From a virus (taxonomy: Duplodnaviria; Heunggongvirae; Uroviricota; Caudoviricetes), in IMG/VR virus record IMGVR_UViG_2574180238_000003: 47,428 nucleotides of DNA. One strand, written 5' to 3'. Within the stretch, counting starts at the first letter, position 1, and the number at the start of each line of letters is the position of its first letter. A program made the position numbers and the translations under genes. The notes under the pieces are model-generated. The model was given only the letters and a program-made list of their open reading frames with translations. It ran no database searches and had not been told where the DNA came from. Shown one piece after another: positions 10,022 through 24,859 of this stretch.

Positions 10022-10390
10022 ATGACTGAATTAACAAAAGAGCAATTAATCAAAGAAGCCAAATTAAAAATAGCGGTTGCGAAATGTTACCCTAATTCAG
10101 AGATGGCCAGGGTAGAGGGCGAGCTATTCAAAATTGCACTGGCATCGCTGGAAGCGGTTCCGGTGGCATGGCTGCATTCAGACAATGGCCTGGGTATTCC
10201 AGCAATAACCAGGAGTAAAAACGTTGCTGATAGTTGGTTATCAAAGGGCTGGTATGTTCAGCCGTTATATGTAGCCCAACCAGTACCGGTGGTGCCGGAT
10301 GCTCGTCCATCTTTAAATAATGGCATTGTCGGATTTGATGAAGGCTGGAATGCCTGCCGGGATGCCATGCTTAATGGAGATAAATCATGA
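10022..10390 (+). CDS. Hypothetical protein
   Basis: 122-aa ORF in the nin-like region; ATGA overlap with the next gene. Confidence 0.5.
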   Translation: MTELTKEQLIKEAKLKIAVAKCYPNSEMARVEGELFKIALASLEAVPVAWLHSDNGLGIPAITRSKNVADSWLSKGWYVQPLYVAQPVPVVPDARPSLNNGIVGFDEGWNACRDAMLNGDKS

Positions 10391-10869
10391 TTAATCGTAT
10401 CAAGCTGGAGCACATCCTCGAATATGCCAGGCAGCAGAAATGTATTGGGCAACTTTGTAAAATTCCACCAGGGGATATGGTTGAGATCATGGAAATAGCT
10501 ATGCGTCAGGCTGGCAACTTTCAGGTAATTCCTGATGACGGTCGCGAACAGTTCGAAGCGCTTATCAGGTTCTATGCGGATGATAAAAACCATGAAACAT
10601 TGTTGCTTCGTGCTAACGAAGGGATGAATTACCGGGATCCAAATGTGGATTTGGCGTGGATATCCTGGAAATCCAGCCGAGAGCACATATTGCCGGGAAA
10701 AAGCGACAATAATCCAGCATCAGGCGATCAGGTAAGTGAATTAACAATGTGGGTGAAGCGGTTATCTCATTCCTTAAAAAGCGTTAATAAATCAAGCAAA
10801 CTACCGGATAAAGCGATGGACTACCTGAAGCGAAACGGACTGATAAACGAGGAGGATATTTTACGATGA
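10387..10869 (+). CDS. Hypothetical protein
   Basis: 160-aa ORF translationally coupled to the upstream and downstream ORFs. Confidence 0.5.
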   Translation: MINRIKLEHILEYARQQKCIGQLCKIPPGDMVEIMEIAMRQAGNFQVIPDDGREQFEALIRFYADDKNHETLLLRANEGMNYRDPNVDLAWISWKSSREHILPGKSDNNPASGDQVSELTMWVKRLSHSLKSVNKSSKLPDKAMDYLKRNGLINEEDILR

Positions 10870-10949
10870 CCAGGCCTGAAGCGTTCATAACGGTAGGAAT
10901 AGCAATGGCGGTGGCGCTGGTGGTGTATTCGATTTGTCGCTGGGGATAA
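10866..10949 (+). CDS. Small hydrophobic peptide (27 aa)
   Basis: ATGA overlap with the upstream gene stop; MTRPEAFITVGIAMAVALVVYSICRWG is a single predicted transmembrane helix. Confidence 0.3.
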   Translation: MTRPEAFITVGIAMAVALVVYSICRWG

Positions 10950-11159
10950 AAACGGTTTGCGGGGAAAGAAGAGTTAAGTAGAATTGCTGCGGGTGCTTGA
11001 GGCTGTTTGCCTCGGGCATGCCGCCGTAAGGCAGACAGAGAAAAGCCCCAGTTAACATTACGCGTCTTGCAGGACGCTTAACATTAATCTGAGGCCCAAT
11101 CTATGCTTCACAAACGTAGGTTAGCCTCTTACGTGCCGAAAGGCAAGGAGAAGCAGGCT

Positions 11160-11315
11160 ATGAAGCAGCAAAAGGCGATGTTAATCGCCCTGATCGTCAT
11201 CTGTTTAACCGTCATAGTGACGGCACTGGTAACGAGGAAAGACCTCTGCGAGGTACGAATCCGAACCGGCCAGACGGAGGTTGCTGTCTTCGTAGACTAC
11301 GAATCTGAGAAGTAA
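11160..11315 (+). CDS. hokD: Hok/Gef-family type I toxin (HokD/RelF-like)
   Basis: MKQQKAMLIALIVICLTVIVTALVTRKDLCEVRIRTGQTEVAVF... matches the Hok family signature and recalled RelF/HokD; GC hairpin ggcgagggagaaatccctcgcc (11325-11346) just downstream, typical of hok mRNA 3' ends. Confidence 0.85.
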   Translation: MKQQKAMLIALIVICLTVIVTALVTRKDLCEVRIRTGQTEVAVFVDYESEK

Positions 11316-11393
11316 GAGTGACCAGGCGAGGGAGAAATCCCTCGCCACCTCTGATGTGTCAGGCATCCTCAACGCACCCGCACGTCCCCCGTT

Positions 11394-11756
11394 TTGGCAG
11401 ACTTTGTTTTTTCCTGGCATTCTGGTTTACAATTCGCACGTCAGCCTGAACAACTGGCACCTGCTGCGTCACCGGAGAACCCGATGGCGCAACATATAAA
11501 ATCCCACAATTCTGAAGTCGATCCGACCATTAAGCGGGGGCGGCGTTCACACGTATTTAAAACCGACTGGTTCCAGCATGACCTATGCACTGAAGAACAG
11601 GCCGAATGGCTGATCCAGTGTTACCGCAGGCGCGGATATGAGTTTGAGAAAGCCCTCAGCTTCGATCGTCGTCACTGGATAATCTCCGTCAGGCTCCCTT
11701 ATTCCGAACGCCCACCGCGTCCGTCCCGCACATTCCAGCAGCGCATCTGGAGGTAA
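11394..11756 (+). CDS. Hypothetical protein
   Basis: ORF between hok and the DUF968 gene; probable start at an internal Met (MAQHIKSHNSEV, 11484). Confidence 0.4.
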   Translation: MADFVFSWHSGLQFARQPEQLAPAASPENPMAQHIKSHNSEVDPTIKRGRRSHVFKTDWFQHDLCTEEQAEWLIQCYRRRGYEFEKALSFDRRHWIISVRLPYSERPPRPSRTFQQRIWR

Positions 11757-15406: not shown

Positions 15407-15482
15407 GGCCCTTTAGCTCAGTGGTGAGAGCGAGCGACTCATAATCGCCAGGTCGCTGGTTCAAATCCAGCAAGGGCCACCA
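15407..15482 (+). tRNA. tRNA with CAU anticodon (Ile2/lysidine-type, ileZ-like; Met not excluded)
   Basis: 76-nt cloverleaf: acceptor GGCCCTT/AAGGGCC, D-arm GCTC..GAGC, anticodon loop CTCATAA, T-loop GGTTCAAATCC, 3' ACCA encoded; close to recalled E. coli ileX. Confidence 0.85.
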
Positions 15483-15491
15483 TATCACATA

Positions 15492-15568
15492 CCGCCATTA
15501 GCTCATCGGGATAGAGCGCCAGCCTTCGAAGCTGGCTGCGCGGGGTTCGAGTCCTCGATGGCGGTCCA
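15492..15568 (+). tRNA. tRNA-Arg (anticodon UCG)
   Basis: 77-nt cloverleaf: acceptor CCGCCAT/ATGGCGG, anticodon stem CCAGC/GCTGG with loop CTTCGAA, T-arm CGGGG-TTCGAGT-CCTCG, 3' TCCA. Confidence 0.8.
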
Positions 15569-16334: not shown

Positions 16335-16590
16335 TGTGAAGTGTTAAATCCCTCACAATTCAGTAAGTTGACAGTTGCCTGTCAGACTGAGCATTTGTTA
16401 AAAAAATTTCGCATGGTGAATCCCCCTGTGCGGAGGGGCGACTGGTGAACGGTATGATCTCTTTGATGATCGTAAGCGAGAATACGCGGGTTTGGTGTCA
16501 CCGGGCTGAACTCACCGGGAGGCACCCGGCACCATGCTCATGGTGATACAGAAATGCGGCTTCAGCCCCTCTCCGGAGGGGCTTTCTTAT
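16335..16590 (+). repeat. Structured repeat unit 1 of 4 (candidate sRNA)
   Basis: Conserved blocks ttaaatccctcacaattcag, gcatggtgaatccccctgtgcggaggggc, caccgggaggcacccggcaccatgc, and terminator hairpin gcccctctccggaggggc with T-run. Confidence 0.6.
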
Positions 16591-16746
16591 GGACAAAAAA
16601 AGCCCGCGCTGGGAGACGCGGGCGGCAAGGAATAAACAATAAAACGTGAAGTAATACTTCAACTGGCGAATAATACCCGACAGTAATCACTCTGCGCAAT
16701 AGCGTGGCCTTTTTCGAATTGCGGGCTGTAGTCTCCCTTCTGCCGG

Positions 16747-18304: not shown

Positions 18305-18548
18305 TCATGGAAATGTTAAATGACTCACAATTCGGTTGATGGGCTATTGTCTGATCGATGGAAGTCTTGTAAAAACGAGCCAGCATAGTGAATCCCCCTG
18401 TGCGGAGGGGCGTCTGACATGGTCTCCATAGCGATGGTCACAATACGCAGATTCAGTAGTCAGGCTGAATCTACCGGGAGGCACCCGGCACTATGCTGCT
18501 TATGGTGTATACATAGCGATCGGCCCCTCTCCGGAGGGGCTTTTTTTG
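18305..18548 (+). repeat. Structured repeat unit 2 of 4
   Basis: Same block order as unit 1; long-range helix gcatagtg (18383-18390) / cactatgc (18489-18496) carries a compensatory base-pair change relative to unit 1; terminator gcccctctccggaggggc plus T7. Confidence 0.6.
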
Positions 18549-18564
18549 TGCGGGAAAAGGCTGT

Positions 18565-18806
18565 GTTGTTAAGTGTTAAATTCCTCACAGTTCAGATGGT
18601 TGATGCTTGCCTGTCTGAGGGGGCGTTGTTAAAAAAGTTCTGCATGGTGAATCCCCCTGAGCGGAGGGGCATATCAGCGCAGGTGTTTCTACTCTATCCT
18701 TTCTGTGCGGGTTCAGGTGCTGATACTGAACTCATCGGGAGGCACCCGGCATCATGCATATGGTTAACAGACACGTAGCGAAGCCCCTCTCCGGAGGGGC
18801 TTTTTT
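18565..18806 (+). repeat. Structured repeat unit 3 of 4
   Basis: Same blocks; helix gcatggtg / catcatgc (G-U wobble); terminator gcccctctccggaggggc plus T6. Confidence 0.6.
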
Positions 18807-18824
18807 ATGCAGGGAAAAGGCTGT

Positions 18825-19062
18825 GTTGTGAAATGTTAAATTCCTCACAATTCATGAGGTTGATGATTGTCTGATTGATGAGGAGTTTGTTAAAAAAAAC
18901 GGGCATGGTGAATCCCCCTGTGCGGAGGGGTGATATCGTATCATTTCCTGTGTGGCCGACTGATATCACGGACATTTGTTCACCGGGAGGCACCCGGCAC
19001 CATGCAGTATACAGAGATTAGGCATACATCCAGGCTCCTCATCGCAGGAGCCTTTTTACATG
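18825..19062 (+). repeat. Structured repeat unit 4 of 4
   Basis: Same blocks; helix gcatggtg / caccatgc; different terminator sequence (ggctcctcatcgcaggagcc plus T5) in the same position. Confidence 0.6.
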
Positions 19063-19291
19063 TAAAAAAAAAAACGCTCCTGGGAAGAGCGGTTGGCAAG
19101 GAAGCAAGGAATAAATAACAAAACGTGAAGTAATTTATTCAGCACCCTAATAATACCTTAGAGTAATCACATTGCGCAACTGTAAGGGCGTATTTCTTTT
19201 TTGCGGGCTGTTTTTCTGTGTGACTTTTGTGTTTCCGGAGGTCAGCCCGTGCCTTCTCTGACTCAGAACATTATCCCGGCCGGGAGGATTC

Positions 19292-22880: not shown

Positions 22881-23229
22881 TACAGGTATTTCACCGCGCA
22901 TCGCAGCGCACTCAACCACGTCGAACCAAACCCTTTGGAATGAGCCTTTGAGTAGTCAGTTAGTGCTGGTGAGCCTTGACGGGCTGATCTCCTATGCAGC
23001 AAAGGTTCATCTCAAAGTAAGGCGAACGCTATGACAAACCAAGATTCTATAGACCTATCTGATCTTCGTGGAATGGTCAGTTTTCCAGACAAAAGGTAAT
23101 CACCATAGTCGTATGGCTATGAATCTTGTTGCTGCAGATAAGCATTTTGTGATTGAAGTGGTCAAATCTCTCAAATGCAGTAAAATGCAGTGCGCTATAA
23201 TTCAATAACGGAGGGAGTAAGGAGAAGTC

Positions 23230-23850
23230 ATGAAAGATCAAGATGTTAGGTTCGCGGTGCATCATAAGCTTTTGAAAGAATCGCATTTAGATCCAGACTG
23301 CCTTGTGGTCGATGAATTTTCCATATCCCTTGGCGCCAGTAGAGCAGACATTGCTGTAATAAATGGTGTTATACACGGGTACGAGCTCAAAAGTGAATAT
23401 GACTCTTTGGAGCGTTTGCCTCTTCAAATCAAGCATTATTCTTCTGTAATGGACAAGGTTACTCTTGTCGTAGCTGAGAAACATCTTGAGGGAGCATTAA
23501 AGTTAATCCCAGGTTGGTGGGGCGTTAAAACGGTTTCTGTTGGGTCAAAAGGCGCCATTCTTATAAAGCACATGCGTGGAGAAAAGCTTAATCGAAACCA
23601 TGACACATTGATGCTCGCTCAATTGCTTTGGAAAGATGAATGTATCGACGTACTTGAACGATGGGGCTATTCCAAAGGAATCAAAAGCAAGCCCCGATTT
23701 GAGTTATGGAATATTATTGCGGAAAATATTCCAATAGCGAATCTCAGGCTTGAAGTCAGAACAGCCTTAAAGAAACGCGTAGGCTGGAAAGTTAAGGCTT
23801 GGCAGGCTGAGTCTGCGCCAACCAATAAAGCTGTCTCACGACTAACGTAA
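23230..23850 (+). CDS. Hypothetical protein with PD-(D/E)xK-like nuclease motif
   Basis: 206-aa ORF with a strong Shine-Dalgarno (GGAGGGAGTAAGGAGAAG before the ATG); putative active-site elements RADIAVINGVIHGYELKSE (D...ExK); AT-rich; convergent with and overlapping the next gene. Confidence 0.6.
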   Translation: MKDQDVRFAVHHKLLKESHLDPDCLVVDEFSISLGASRADIAVINGVIHGYELKSEYDSLERLPLQIKHYSSVMDKVTLVVAEKHLEGALKLIPGWWGVKTVSVGSKGAILIKHMRGEKLNRNHDTLMLAQLLWKDECIDVLERWGYSKGIKSKPRFELWNIIAENIPIANLRLEVRTALKKRVGWKVKAWQAESAPTNKAVSRLT

Positions 23851-24859
23851 TATGGTGCGTATGTGCAACTTTACGCCATTCTTTAGAGCCGCCAGATTTG
23901 TTAGCGCCTAATGATCTTTGGTAAATGTAATCATCCCCCCAACTAAATTTGGAGCCAAAGACTTGATACTCTGGCGAACTAACAAGGGTAGTACATAAGT
24001 TTTTAGTTTGGCCCCATCCATTTCCTTTAACTGCGGTACCTTTTACAAAGATCCATGAGGTATCGTTCGAATATCTCACTGAGACATACTGAGACATGAA
24101 GCGTGGGTCTACGCTCGTAATGGTAGAGCTAGCGGTGGGATAATCACTAAAACTTGGCGTTCTTCCATTGCTAAAATTCTGTACTACGTACATCCAAAGA
24201 TCGTATTCATGGCGCGGAATATGATGAACTTGATGTTGCGGTATCCCTGCCTGTGATGCCGGGTATGCGGTTGAAGATAAAATCAAGTTTCTCCACGGAG
24301 CTTGGCCTGATAATGTGTTGACCATGCTTAATGCTTGTTGTTTTAAACTATCAGTTGCGTTTTGAATATCTCCAAAATCAATGATTACATCAATTAAACT
24401 AGGATGAATATTTAAGTGGTTAACCAGACTTGTGAATTGGTGCCATGTCTGGGGGGTGATAGATATAGCGAGCCCATTGATTAAGTTGCGTTGAACAGCA
24501 TGTATATAGTTTGTTGAATATGTGGGAGAAACAACAGGGATAATTTCCTTACCATTTACTCTAGCATCTTGGATACACATATCTAGAGGATGATGGCGGC
24601 TCGAACCATGTTTATCTAAATATTTAACATCCAGCAAAACAGGACGATTGGCTTTCCAGGATGCCGCAAGGTTAATACCGAAGTCAGATAAGTAAGAACT
24701 CAAACTCTTCTTGTAGCATTCGTTTTCATAATCCCAGTCTATGTCTGGAATGGTAATGATCGGAGTAAAACCAGAGAGCGTAGTTTGATCTAAAAGCATC
24801 AGAGATTCATATTCAGCAGGCTTCCATTTCAGCTGTGGATAATATTGATGTTGACTCAT
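23792..24859 (-). CDS. Hypothetical protein (355 aa), partner of the PD-(D/E)xK-like gene
   Basis: Minus-strand ORF with an AAGGAG Shine-Dalgarno upstream; its 3' end overlaps the plus-strand gene by 59 bp; no recognisable motifs; AT-rich promoter region at 24860-25060. Confidence 0.6.
   Translation of the reverse strand: MSQHQYYPQLKWKPAEYESLMLLDQTTLSGFTPIITIPDIDWDYENECYKKSLSSYLSDFGINLAASWKANRPVLLDVKYLDKHGSSRHHPLDMCIQDARVNGKEIIPVVSPTYSTNYIHAVQRNLINGLAISITPQTWHQFTSLVNHLNIHPSLIDVIIDFGDIQNATDSLKQQALSMVNTLSGQAPWRNLILSSTAYPASQAGIPQHQVHHIPRHEYDLWMYVVQNFSNGRTPSFSDYPTASSTITSVDPRFMSQYVSVRYSNDTSWIFVKGTAVKGNGWGQTKNLCTTLVSSPEYQVFGSKFSWGDDYIYQRSLGANKSGGSKEWRKVAHTHHITLVVRQLYWLAQTQPAKP

Follow-up and report, generated by a model that had tools for sequence, protein, structure and literature searches.

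An apparently intact hokW-sokW-type toxin-antitoxin cassette in a lambdoid prophage of Escherichia coli

The hok/sok locus (parB) of plasmid R1 is the paradigm of a family of type I toxin-antitoxin cassettes. Its elements stand in the order tac, ucb, SD-mok, dcb, a mok frame overlapping hok, 3' stem-loop and fbi, and an antisense RNA, Sok, is encoded in cis over the mok initiation region. In R1, mok and hok are in different frames. The R1 hok mRNA has been described in closed, metastable and open states, and mutations in its 3' stem abolish toxicity (PMC9841398). A closer relative of the locus treated here is hokW-sokW, known from the Stx2 phage 933W and from the Sakai prophage Sp5. HokW of Sp5 is toxic and arrests growth, and sokW, transcribed from its own promoter, neutralizes it, partly via RNase III and Hfq (PMC8621323). 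After treatment with mitomycin C the sokW RNA is gone and HokW is found in the inner membrane in a RecA-dependent manner, while deletion of the Sp5 locus postpones growth arrest by ~40 minutes and lowers phage release by half (PMC8621323). Here we present a description of a cassette of this family in a stretch of viral DNA of 47,428 nucleotides (IMG/VR record IMGVR_UViG_2574180238_000003), called the window below, together with a comparison with its homologues.

The cassette extends over about 10957-11381 on the plus strand, from the promoter through fbi. Judged by its sequence, it is very probably an intact type I toxin-antitoxin cassette that belongs to the hok/sok family and, within it, to the hokW-sokW (prophage hokD-like) subgroup, with R1/Sp5-type regulation, in a lambdoid E. 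coli prophage. The original prediction, made from the letters alone, had proposed a hok/sok-type locus at 10950-11350; the cassette is there, but the proposed 3' limit falls short, leaving fbi (11367-11379) outside. The interpretation as hok/sok-type is borne out by the closest homologue, hokW-sokW of Sp5/933W, which has an identical toxin and 93% DNA identity and for which a toxic Hok and an antisense Sok have been established experimentally. The Pfam and PHROG matches, the identity to HokW and the Rfam match (all given below) together exclude chance. Element set and order are those of R1 hok/sok, as are the cis-antisense Sok over the mok initiation region and the three predicted folding states; the R1 toxin, however, is only ~44% identical to the HokW-type toxin (the figure given for HokW, PMC8621323), and its carrier is a plasmid rather than a prophage.

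The window starts with the integrase gene of a lambdoid prophage that is inserted beside potC in E. coli. The chromosome of E. coli HY220605, a yak isolate, is 100% identical over the query, and the toxin gene carries the RefSeq name hokD there. The cassette is flanked by the replication-region genes on one side and by a nin-type block of DUF968, RusA and DUF1133 genes on the other, and is on the strand of these early-right genes; its predicted placement in a nin-like region is thus correct, and the position before these genes is usual in related phages. It had also been described as lying in an intergenic island, which agrees with the RefSeq annotation of the identical genome, where no genes are listed at 10870-11159 and 11316-11483. 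Farther upstream, the same annotation (RefSeq/PGAP) labels 10022-10384 (+) as a pseudogene, 'valyl-tRNA synthetase, incomplete'; an intact ORF of 122 aa at 10022-10390 has no Pfam match, and the label is probably an annotation artefact.

Several other features of the prophage were recorded. Two tRNA genes (15407-15479 and 15492-15565, +; tRNA-Ile and tRNA-Arg in RefSeq) lie downstream of a DNA methyltransferase gene. In Stx phages the toxin genes follow the equivalent tRNA position; no stx genes are annotated by RefSeq in the window prophage. The Rfam sRNA family STnc100 is represented by four copies scoring 119-172 bits (16382-16594, 18354-18549, 18614-18812 and 18874-19063, +), three of them in a head-to-tail array, spaced by ~260 nt, that follows the tRNA genes and precedes a SASA esterase gene and the lysis genes. 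Between the lysis cassette and the terminase, two genes whose 3' ends overlap (23227-23847, +, and 23792-24856, -) encode proteins that RefSeq assigns to the 'sce7726 family' and the 'beta family'. They match the PADLOC models 'cll' (E 1e-31) and 'PD-Lambda-2_C' / 'beta' (E 6e-32 and 4e-10), which makes the pair a candidate prophage-borne anti-phage defence system.

The hok toxin gene (11160-11315, +) encodes 51 aa and has its own Shine-Dalgarno (SD) sequence (AGGAG, 11146-11150). The ORF had been assigned to the Hok family, and it is real: the protein matches Pfam HOK_GEF (PF01848) with an E value of 4.3e-23 (81 bits, cutoff 22) and PHROG 251, 'MokW-like host killing', with an E value of 1e-32, and it is identical to HokW of 933W. 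Its score against the NCBIfam Hok subfamily NF007279 was 53.6, below the curated cutoff of 73. At the DNA level, the coding sequence differs from that of 933W at three positions, all synonymous. The SD-hok region (11147-11159) is invariant among 42 distinct phage copies. The sequence TACGAA (11298-11303), which contains the Tyr47 codon of hok within CUACGAA, is invariant in 18 of 18 aligned homologues. A survey of Hok proteins reported A-to-I editing of the hokC, hokD and hokE mRNAs by TadA, with Tyr recoded as Cys at the corresponding position (bioRxiv 10.1101/2025.08.07.668861); by analogy, editing of the same type is plausible at Tyr47 of the window hok.

The in-frame upstream extension noticed in the first reading corresponds to mok (modulation of killing), a frame of 70 codons (11103-11315, +) that is the counterpart of the annotated mokW of 933W. 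Because it is in frame with hok, the window Mok (70 aa) would be an N-terminally extended Hok. The mok SD sequence, GAGG (11091-11094, +), is situated 8 nt upstream of the mok ATG. Among 66 phage-derived copies (65 viral loci and the window), the SD is kept in all and the ATG in 65, while the surrounding sequence varies. The frame is shared with hok in the window and 933W copies and in loci of the hokC type; a 1-nt indel (GGTCAAGG versus GG-CAAGG) in five other homologues (L012, L013, L020, L024 and L025; L numbers denote individual loci of the comparative set) puts mok out of frame with hok. Since the mok frame differs among homologues, the sequence of the Mok peptide appears to matter little, and the indel fits the view that the translation of mok counts, not its product.

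The putative hok/mok promoter (10957-10984, +), read from the sequence, consists of a -35 hexamer TTGCGG (10957-10962), a 16-nt spacer and a -10 hexamer TAGAAT (10979-10984). Homologues have a -10-like hexamer (TAGAAT, TATAAT, TACAAT or TAAGAT) at the same distance from a conserved GGGTGC. A consensus-based promoter scan listed neither this promoter nor that of Sok, because each has a weak -35 or -10 hexamer, the hok promoter a weak -35. The single match of the promoter/terminator scan (11078-11107, +) falls within the region of the Sok hairpin and was disregarded, as one match is no more than chance would give (0.9 expected). Directly upstream of the promoter, an unannotated ORF encodes a hydrophobic peptide of 27 aa (MTRPEAFITVGIAMAVALVVYSICRWG, 10866-10949, +), the ATG of which overlaps the stop codon of the gene before it (ATGA). 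It has no match in Pfam, NCBIfam or PHROGs. A close version (MTWPEAFANVGTVMAVVLVVYSICRWR) precedes hokW in 933W, and in 20 of 80 viral loci the block of homology around hok starts at ~10863-10866, where this ORF begins; its product may be a small membrane protein carried along with the cassette.

The predicted full-length hok (mok-hok) mRNA is placed at 10991-11381 (+), about 391 nt, by the start of the Rfam match, the pairing of its ends and the limit of homology, each end to within 1-2 nt. The comparison with the Rfam hok/sok models suggested in the original prediction yielded a full-length match of the leader (10991-11165) to RF01794 'sok' (115.8 bits, gathering score 59, E 9e-26). The model, whose structure comprises a tac-ucb stem and an SD-mok/dcb hairpin, matches the hok-sense strand; as the match ends at the hok AUG and the model is one of the hok leader, it was rejected as a locator of the antisense gene. 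At a permissive threshold, Rfam yielded no minus-strand family, and a match to a Caenorhabditis snoRNA (19.9 bits, gathering score 70) was considered noise. A long untranslated leader had been proposed for 10950-11160. A leader of this kind is present, but it begins at about 10991, the putative promoter being within 10950-10990, and its last 57 nt are translated as part of mok.

Within the mRNA, the translational activator element tac (GGGUGCUUGAGG, 10991-11002, +) pairs with fbi in the fold of the full-length RNA and with ucb in the Rfam consensus structure; it is nearly invariant (0.007 differences per site among the 42 distinct phage copies). It is followed by a 5' leader hairpin (CUGUUUGCCU.../...AGGCAGACAG, 11003-11039, +; consensus helix 2), in which three of nine pairs are changed on both sides among the homologues and compensatory changes are seen relative to 933W. 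The ucb element, or anti-SD of mok (AAGCCCCAG, 11043-11051, +), has two partners: the mok SD region (11089-11095) when the fold is closed, and tac when it is open. The open fold is the one accessible to Sok, and in it the mok SD pairs with dcb (GCCUC, 11124-11128, +); the Rfam consensus structure shows this element bound to GAGGC.

Downstream of hok, the strong stem-loop noticed in the first reading (11325-11346, +) is confirmed as a 9-bp helix (GGCGAGGGA/UCCCUCGCC) with a GAAA loop. It is part of the minimum-free-energy fold, and compensatory changes are found in homologues: as consensus helix 16 it has two pairs changed on both sides, with A-U to G-C swaps relative to 933W. It is presumed to be the end, and the protector, of the processed (truncated) mRNA. 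The fold-back inhibitory element fbi (CCUCAACGCACCC; CCUCAA-C-GCACCC, the complement of tac; 11367-11379, +) pairs with tac in both the minimum-free-energy and the consensus folds. The terminator scan found no intrinsic terminator downstream of fbi. Several chromosomal homologues have a GC hairpin and a T-run after fbi; the functional 933W locus likewise has no terminator there.

Folding of the full-length RNA (10991-11381) gave a minimum-free-energy structure of -164.1 kcal/mol (z -7.6 relative to shuffled sequences), in which the 5' and 3' ends are paired through tac and fbi and the mok SD is paired to GCCCCAG in ucb. In nascent fragments, tac folds onto the sequence directly downstream, forming a 5' metastable hairpin. 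The minimum-free-energy fold of the isolated leader consists of the tac-ucb stem and the SD-mok/dcb hairpin and thus equals the Rfam consensus structure; the SD-mok/dcb pairing arises by itself once tac-ucb is imposed. With fbi in place, the open tac-ucb form can be imposed at a cost of 10.5 kcal/mol; without the last 31 nt of the RNA, the cost falls to 2.4 kcal/mol. Even so, the minimum-free-energy fold of the RNA truncated in silico is the closed/metastable form, 2.4 kcal/mol below the published open form. A switch between closed, metastable and open states is therefore regarded as compatible with the sequence and not as demonstrated, its support being the energy gap.

For the comparative analysis, 47 loci were drawn from a one-genome-per-species collection, and 18 intact mRNAs (from Escherichia, Shigella, Kluyvera, Citrobacter, Pantoea and others) were aligned. 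RNAalifold recovered the tac/fbi helix, the hairpins of the 5' end and of Sok, the 3' stem-loop, and long-range helices in which the SD and AUG of hok are buried. Across the 101 consensus pairs, 97.5% of cells are canonical, as compared with 36-48% when the partners are slid by 1-3 columns, and 21 pairs are changed on both sides. In the shuffle control, 0 of 500 reached any of five covariation measures; this control overstates significance because the sequences are related, a weakness from which the slid-partner control is free. The tac/fbi helix (helix 1) is paired in 99.5% of cells and is mostly invariant, with one covarying pair (GC:10, GU:7, AU:1); the Pantoea locus L037 has a double change in it (GGGCGC with GCGCCC) that is masked by an alignment gap. 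E. coli-type hok (~89-94% nucleotide identity) was also encountered on very short contigs of unrelated genera, assigned to Acinetobacter idrijaensis (L014, 275-nt) and Xanthomonas pisi (L022, 431-nt), and in a phage record assigned to Actinobacillus (H2, vB_Apl-pPE4). These copies seem to reflect contamination or wrongly labelled hosts, not a true host range.

An antisense gene had been expected on the minus strand within 11040-11160. Transfer of the sokW misc_RNA of 933W (offset +8403, in a stretch that aligns without gaps) places the predicted Sok RNA gene, about 71 nt long, inside this interval at 11111→11041 (11041-11111, -). The predicted RNA has a single-stranded 5' tail of about 14 nt, followed by a long interrupted hairpin and an end of GGGGC-UUUUCUCU with a U-run (-30 kcal/mol, z -4.7); it is complementary to ucb (the anti-SD), to the mok SD (GAGG, 11091-11094) and to the mok AUG. 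Its promoter (11118-11146, -) has a -35 hexamer TTGCCT (plus-strand positions 11141-11146), a 17-nt spacer and a -10 hexamer TAACCT (plus-strand positions 11118-11123), with a start at about 11111; both hexamers and the spacer are identical to those of 933W/Sp5. In Sp5, mutation of the Sok -10 hexamer from TAGGTTAG to CCGGCTCG (the 'pro-less' construct of Takada et al., primers YO-421/422) abolished the antitoxin activity against HokW (PMC8621323). The -10 hexamer of the window copy is exactly the sequence replaced in that construct.

The cassette and hokW-sokW of 933W/Sp5 share, in addition to the toxin and the Sok promoter hexamers, tac, fbi, both SDs and the in-frame 70-codon mok. The 93% DNA identity extends over 10904-11381, with no gaps between Sok and hok. 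Of the seven substitutions in the 71 nt of the Sok region, four affect the 5' tail and the target of that tail. Mok differs at three residues (LHKR against LNTC), a 2-nt insertion follows the stop codon, and the changes in the 5' hairpin and the 3' stem-loop are compensated. The cassettes also differ in their surroundings: that of 933W is near the right end of the genome, beside L0136 and L0134 (genes of that phage), whereas that of the window, on the early-right strand, has the replication genes and the DUF968/RusA genes as its neighbours.

Despite the shared RefSeq name, and a homologous hok coding sequence and 3' UTR including fbi, hokD (relF) of the K-12 Qin prophage is organized differently. 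The K-12-type copy in the comparative set (L008) follows relB-relE and aligns only to 11145-11382 of the window (95% identity); the whole leader, with tac, Sok and the mok start, has therefore been lost from it, whereas the window copy is complete. The C-termini differ as well, the window Hok reading FVDYESEK and HokD reading FTAYEPEE. Chromosomal loci of the hokC/gef type (L016-L019 and L023) have the same mRNA architecture, the same tac and fbi sequences and an in-frame mok; their Hok proteins, however, are 78-80% identical, their Sok hairpin has lost its apical 18 nt, and the loci are not in prophages.

The limits of the cassette as a unit were examined in 80 IMG/VR viral loci encoding the same or nearly the same Hok. 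The block of homology around hok has its right end at 11379-11383 in 59 of the 80, and its left end falls into three clusters, at 10866, 10943-10949 or 10971-10983. As these boundaries coincide with promoter and fbi, the conserved block consists of the promoter and the full-length mRNA, with fbi as the right limit. The DUF968 gene (11739 onward in the window) is common to about half of the viral loci, which makes the nin-region site typical; the intervening spacer is not shared.

Sequence variation is concentrated in the target of the Sok 5' tail (11097-11111, +), which comprises the spacer between the mok SD and AUG and the first mok codons. Among the 42 distinct phage copies, the mean pairwise difference per site is 0.356 there, as compared with 0.085 in the Sok hairpin, 0.046 in the hok coding sequence, 0.034 in fbi and 0.007 in tac. 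The 15-nt segment exists in 16 distinct versions in these 42 mRNAs, and the wider stretch 11086-11126 in 19 variants among the 66 phage-derived copies; the window allele of the target is rare (2 of 66 copies). In one genome of Shigella flexneri, three intact copies (L004, L009 and L011) are all unlike in this target. By eye, a YUNR (U-turn) motif is seen in the Sok target loop in most of the 11086-11126 variants, including that of the window (UUCA), though not in all. We tentatively propose, from the concentration of variation and the differences among co-resident copies, that 11097-11111 may be a specificity-determining hypervariable region, such that each Sok would control its own hok only and copies in co-resident prophages would not cross-protect. 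Alternatively, the variability may reflect relaxed constraint on the N-terminus of Mok.

The following course of events is proposed on the basis of the sequence, its predicted folding and the homology with hok/sok of R1 and hokW-sokW of Sp5. The weak promoter (-10 TAGAAT) would give a stable mRNA of ~390 nt, starting near 10991, in which tac pairs with fbi (11367-11379); in this closed form the mok SD (11091-11094) would be bound by ucb (11045-11051), and neither ribosomes nor Sok could act. Slow trimming of the 3' end to the stem-loop at 11325-11346 would remove fbi, allow tac to pair with ucb and release the mok SD into the SD/dcb hairpin. As long as the prophage is kept, the short-lived Sok (~71 nt), made from its own promoter, would bind via its 5' tail to the mok translation-initiation region; the pairing would block translation of mok, and hence the coupled translation of hok, and the duplex would be cut by RNase III. 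Once the supply of Sok ends, mok and hok would be translated, and the 51-aa Hok would enter the inner membrane and depolarize or kill the cell. In this copy, transcription reading through from the induced prophage would oppose the Sok promoter, given that the cassette is on the early-right strand.

The window locus might instead be a decayed, non-functional relic, as most hok loci of E. coli K-12 are, with an intact ORF in an unregulated or unexpressed locus that confers no phenotype. The chromosomal hokA, hokB and hokC loci showed no post-segregational killing in past tests (bioRxiv 10.1101/2025.08.07.668861), and decayed homologues occur in the comparative set: L007 is without tac, L015 is interrupted past the 3' stem, and the K-12-type relBE-hokD locus L008 retains only its 3' part. 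The lack of a terminator after fbi in the scan can be counted on the same side, but the closest relative, which has the same architecture and is also terminator-less after fbi, is functional (PMC8621323). In the window copy, moreover, all canonical elements are present and mutually compatible, and the Sok promoter hexamers, both SDs and both ATGs are intact, so that decay is a very improbable account of it.

With regard to the role of an intact cassette, it most likely aids the killing and lysis of the host cell at prophage induction, as shown for Sp5, and/or stabilizes the prophage; the sequence as such favours no single role. The same module could serve mainly for addiction, with post-segregational killing once a cell has lost or excised the prophage and lysis help being secondary. 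This is the role known from R1, the paradigm of the family (PMC9841398), and hok genes are about fourfold enriched in prophages (bioRxiv 10.1101/2025.08.07.668861); against it, the only phenotype measured for the nearest homologue is an earlier growth arrest and a twofold greater phage release after induction, and deletion of that homologue left uninduced growth unchanged (PMC8621323). A mainly addictive function seems rather doubtful. Phage exclusion is also a possible role of the cassette, and a function mainly in abortive-infection defence would follow if a lytic phage that shuts off host transcription depleted Sok and so released Hok. R1 hok-sok excludes T4 (reviewed in PMC10305079), and the same prophage carries the candidate defence pair at 23227-24856. 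No PADLOC model matches Hok, however, and the survey of Hok proteins found no enrichment of hok beside defence systems (bioRxiv 10.1101/2025.08.07.668861), which leaves defence as the main function a less supported and quite unlikely alternative to killing at induction or prophage stabilization.

The kind of cassette (hokW-sokW/hokD-type), and essentially the element itself, were already known, and with respect to mechanism the locus teaches nothing new. The gain is in annotation: in RefSeq, the 100%-identical genome has the 51-aa CDS ('hokD') as the sole entry for this locus and omits mok, the Sok RNA and the ~390-nt regulatory mRNA, all of which can now be placed to the nucleotide. Sequence related to the cassette is found in 4727 of 5426 complete E. 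coli genomes, with a median of 2 and a maximum of 10 related places per locus-bearing genome. If the target of the Sok tail sets the specificity of each copy, this would explain the coexistence of several hok/sok prophage copies in one cell.
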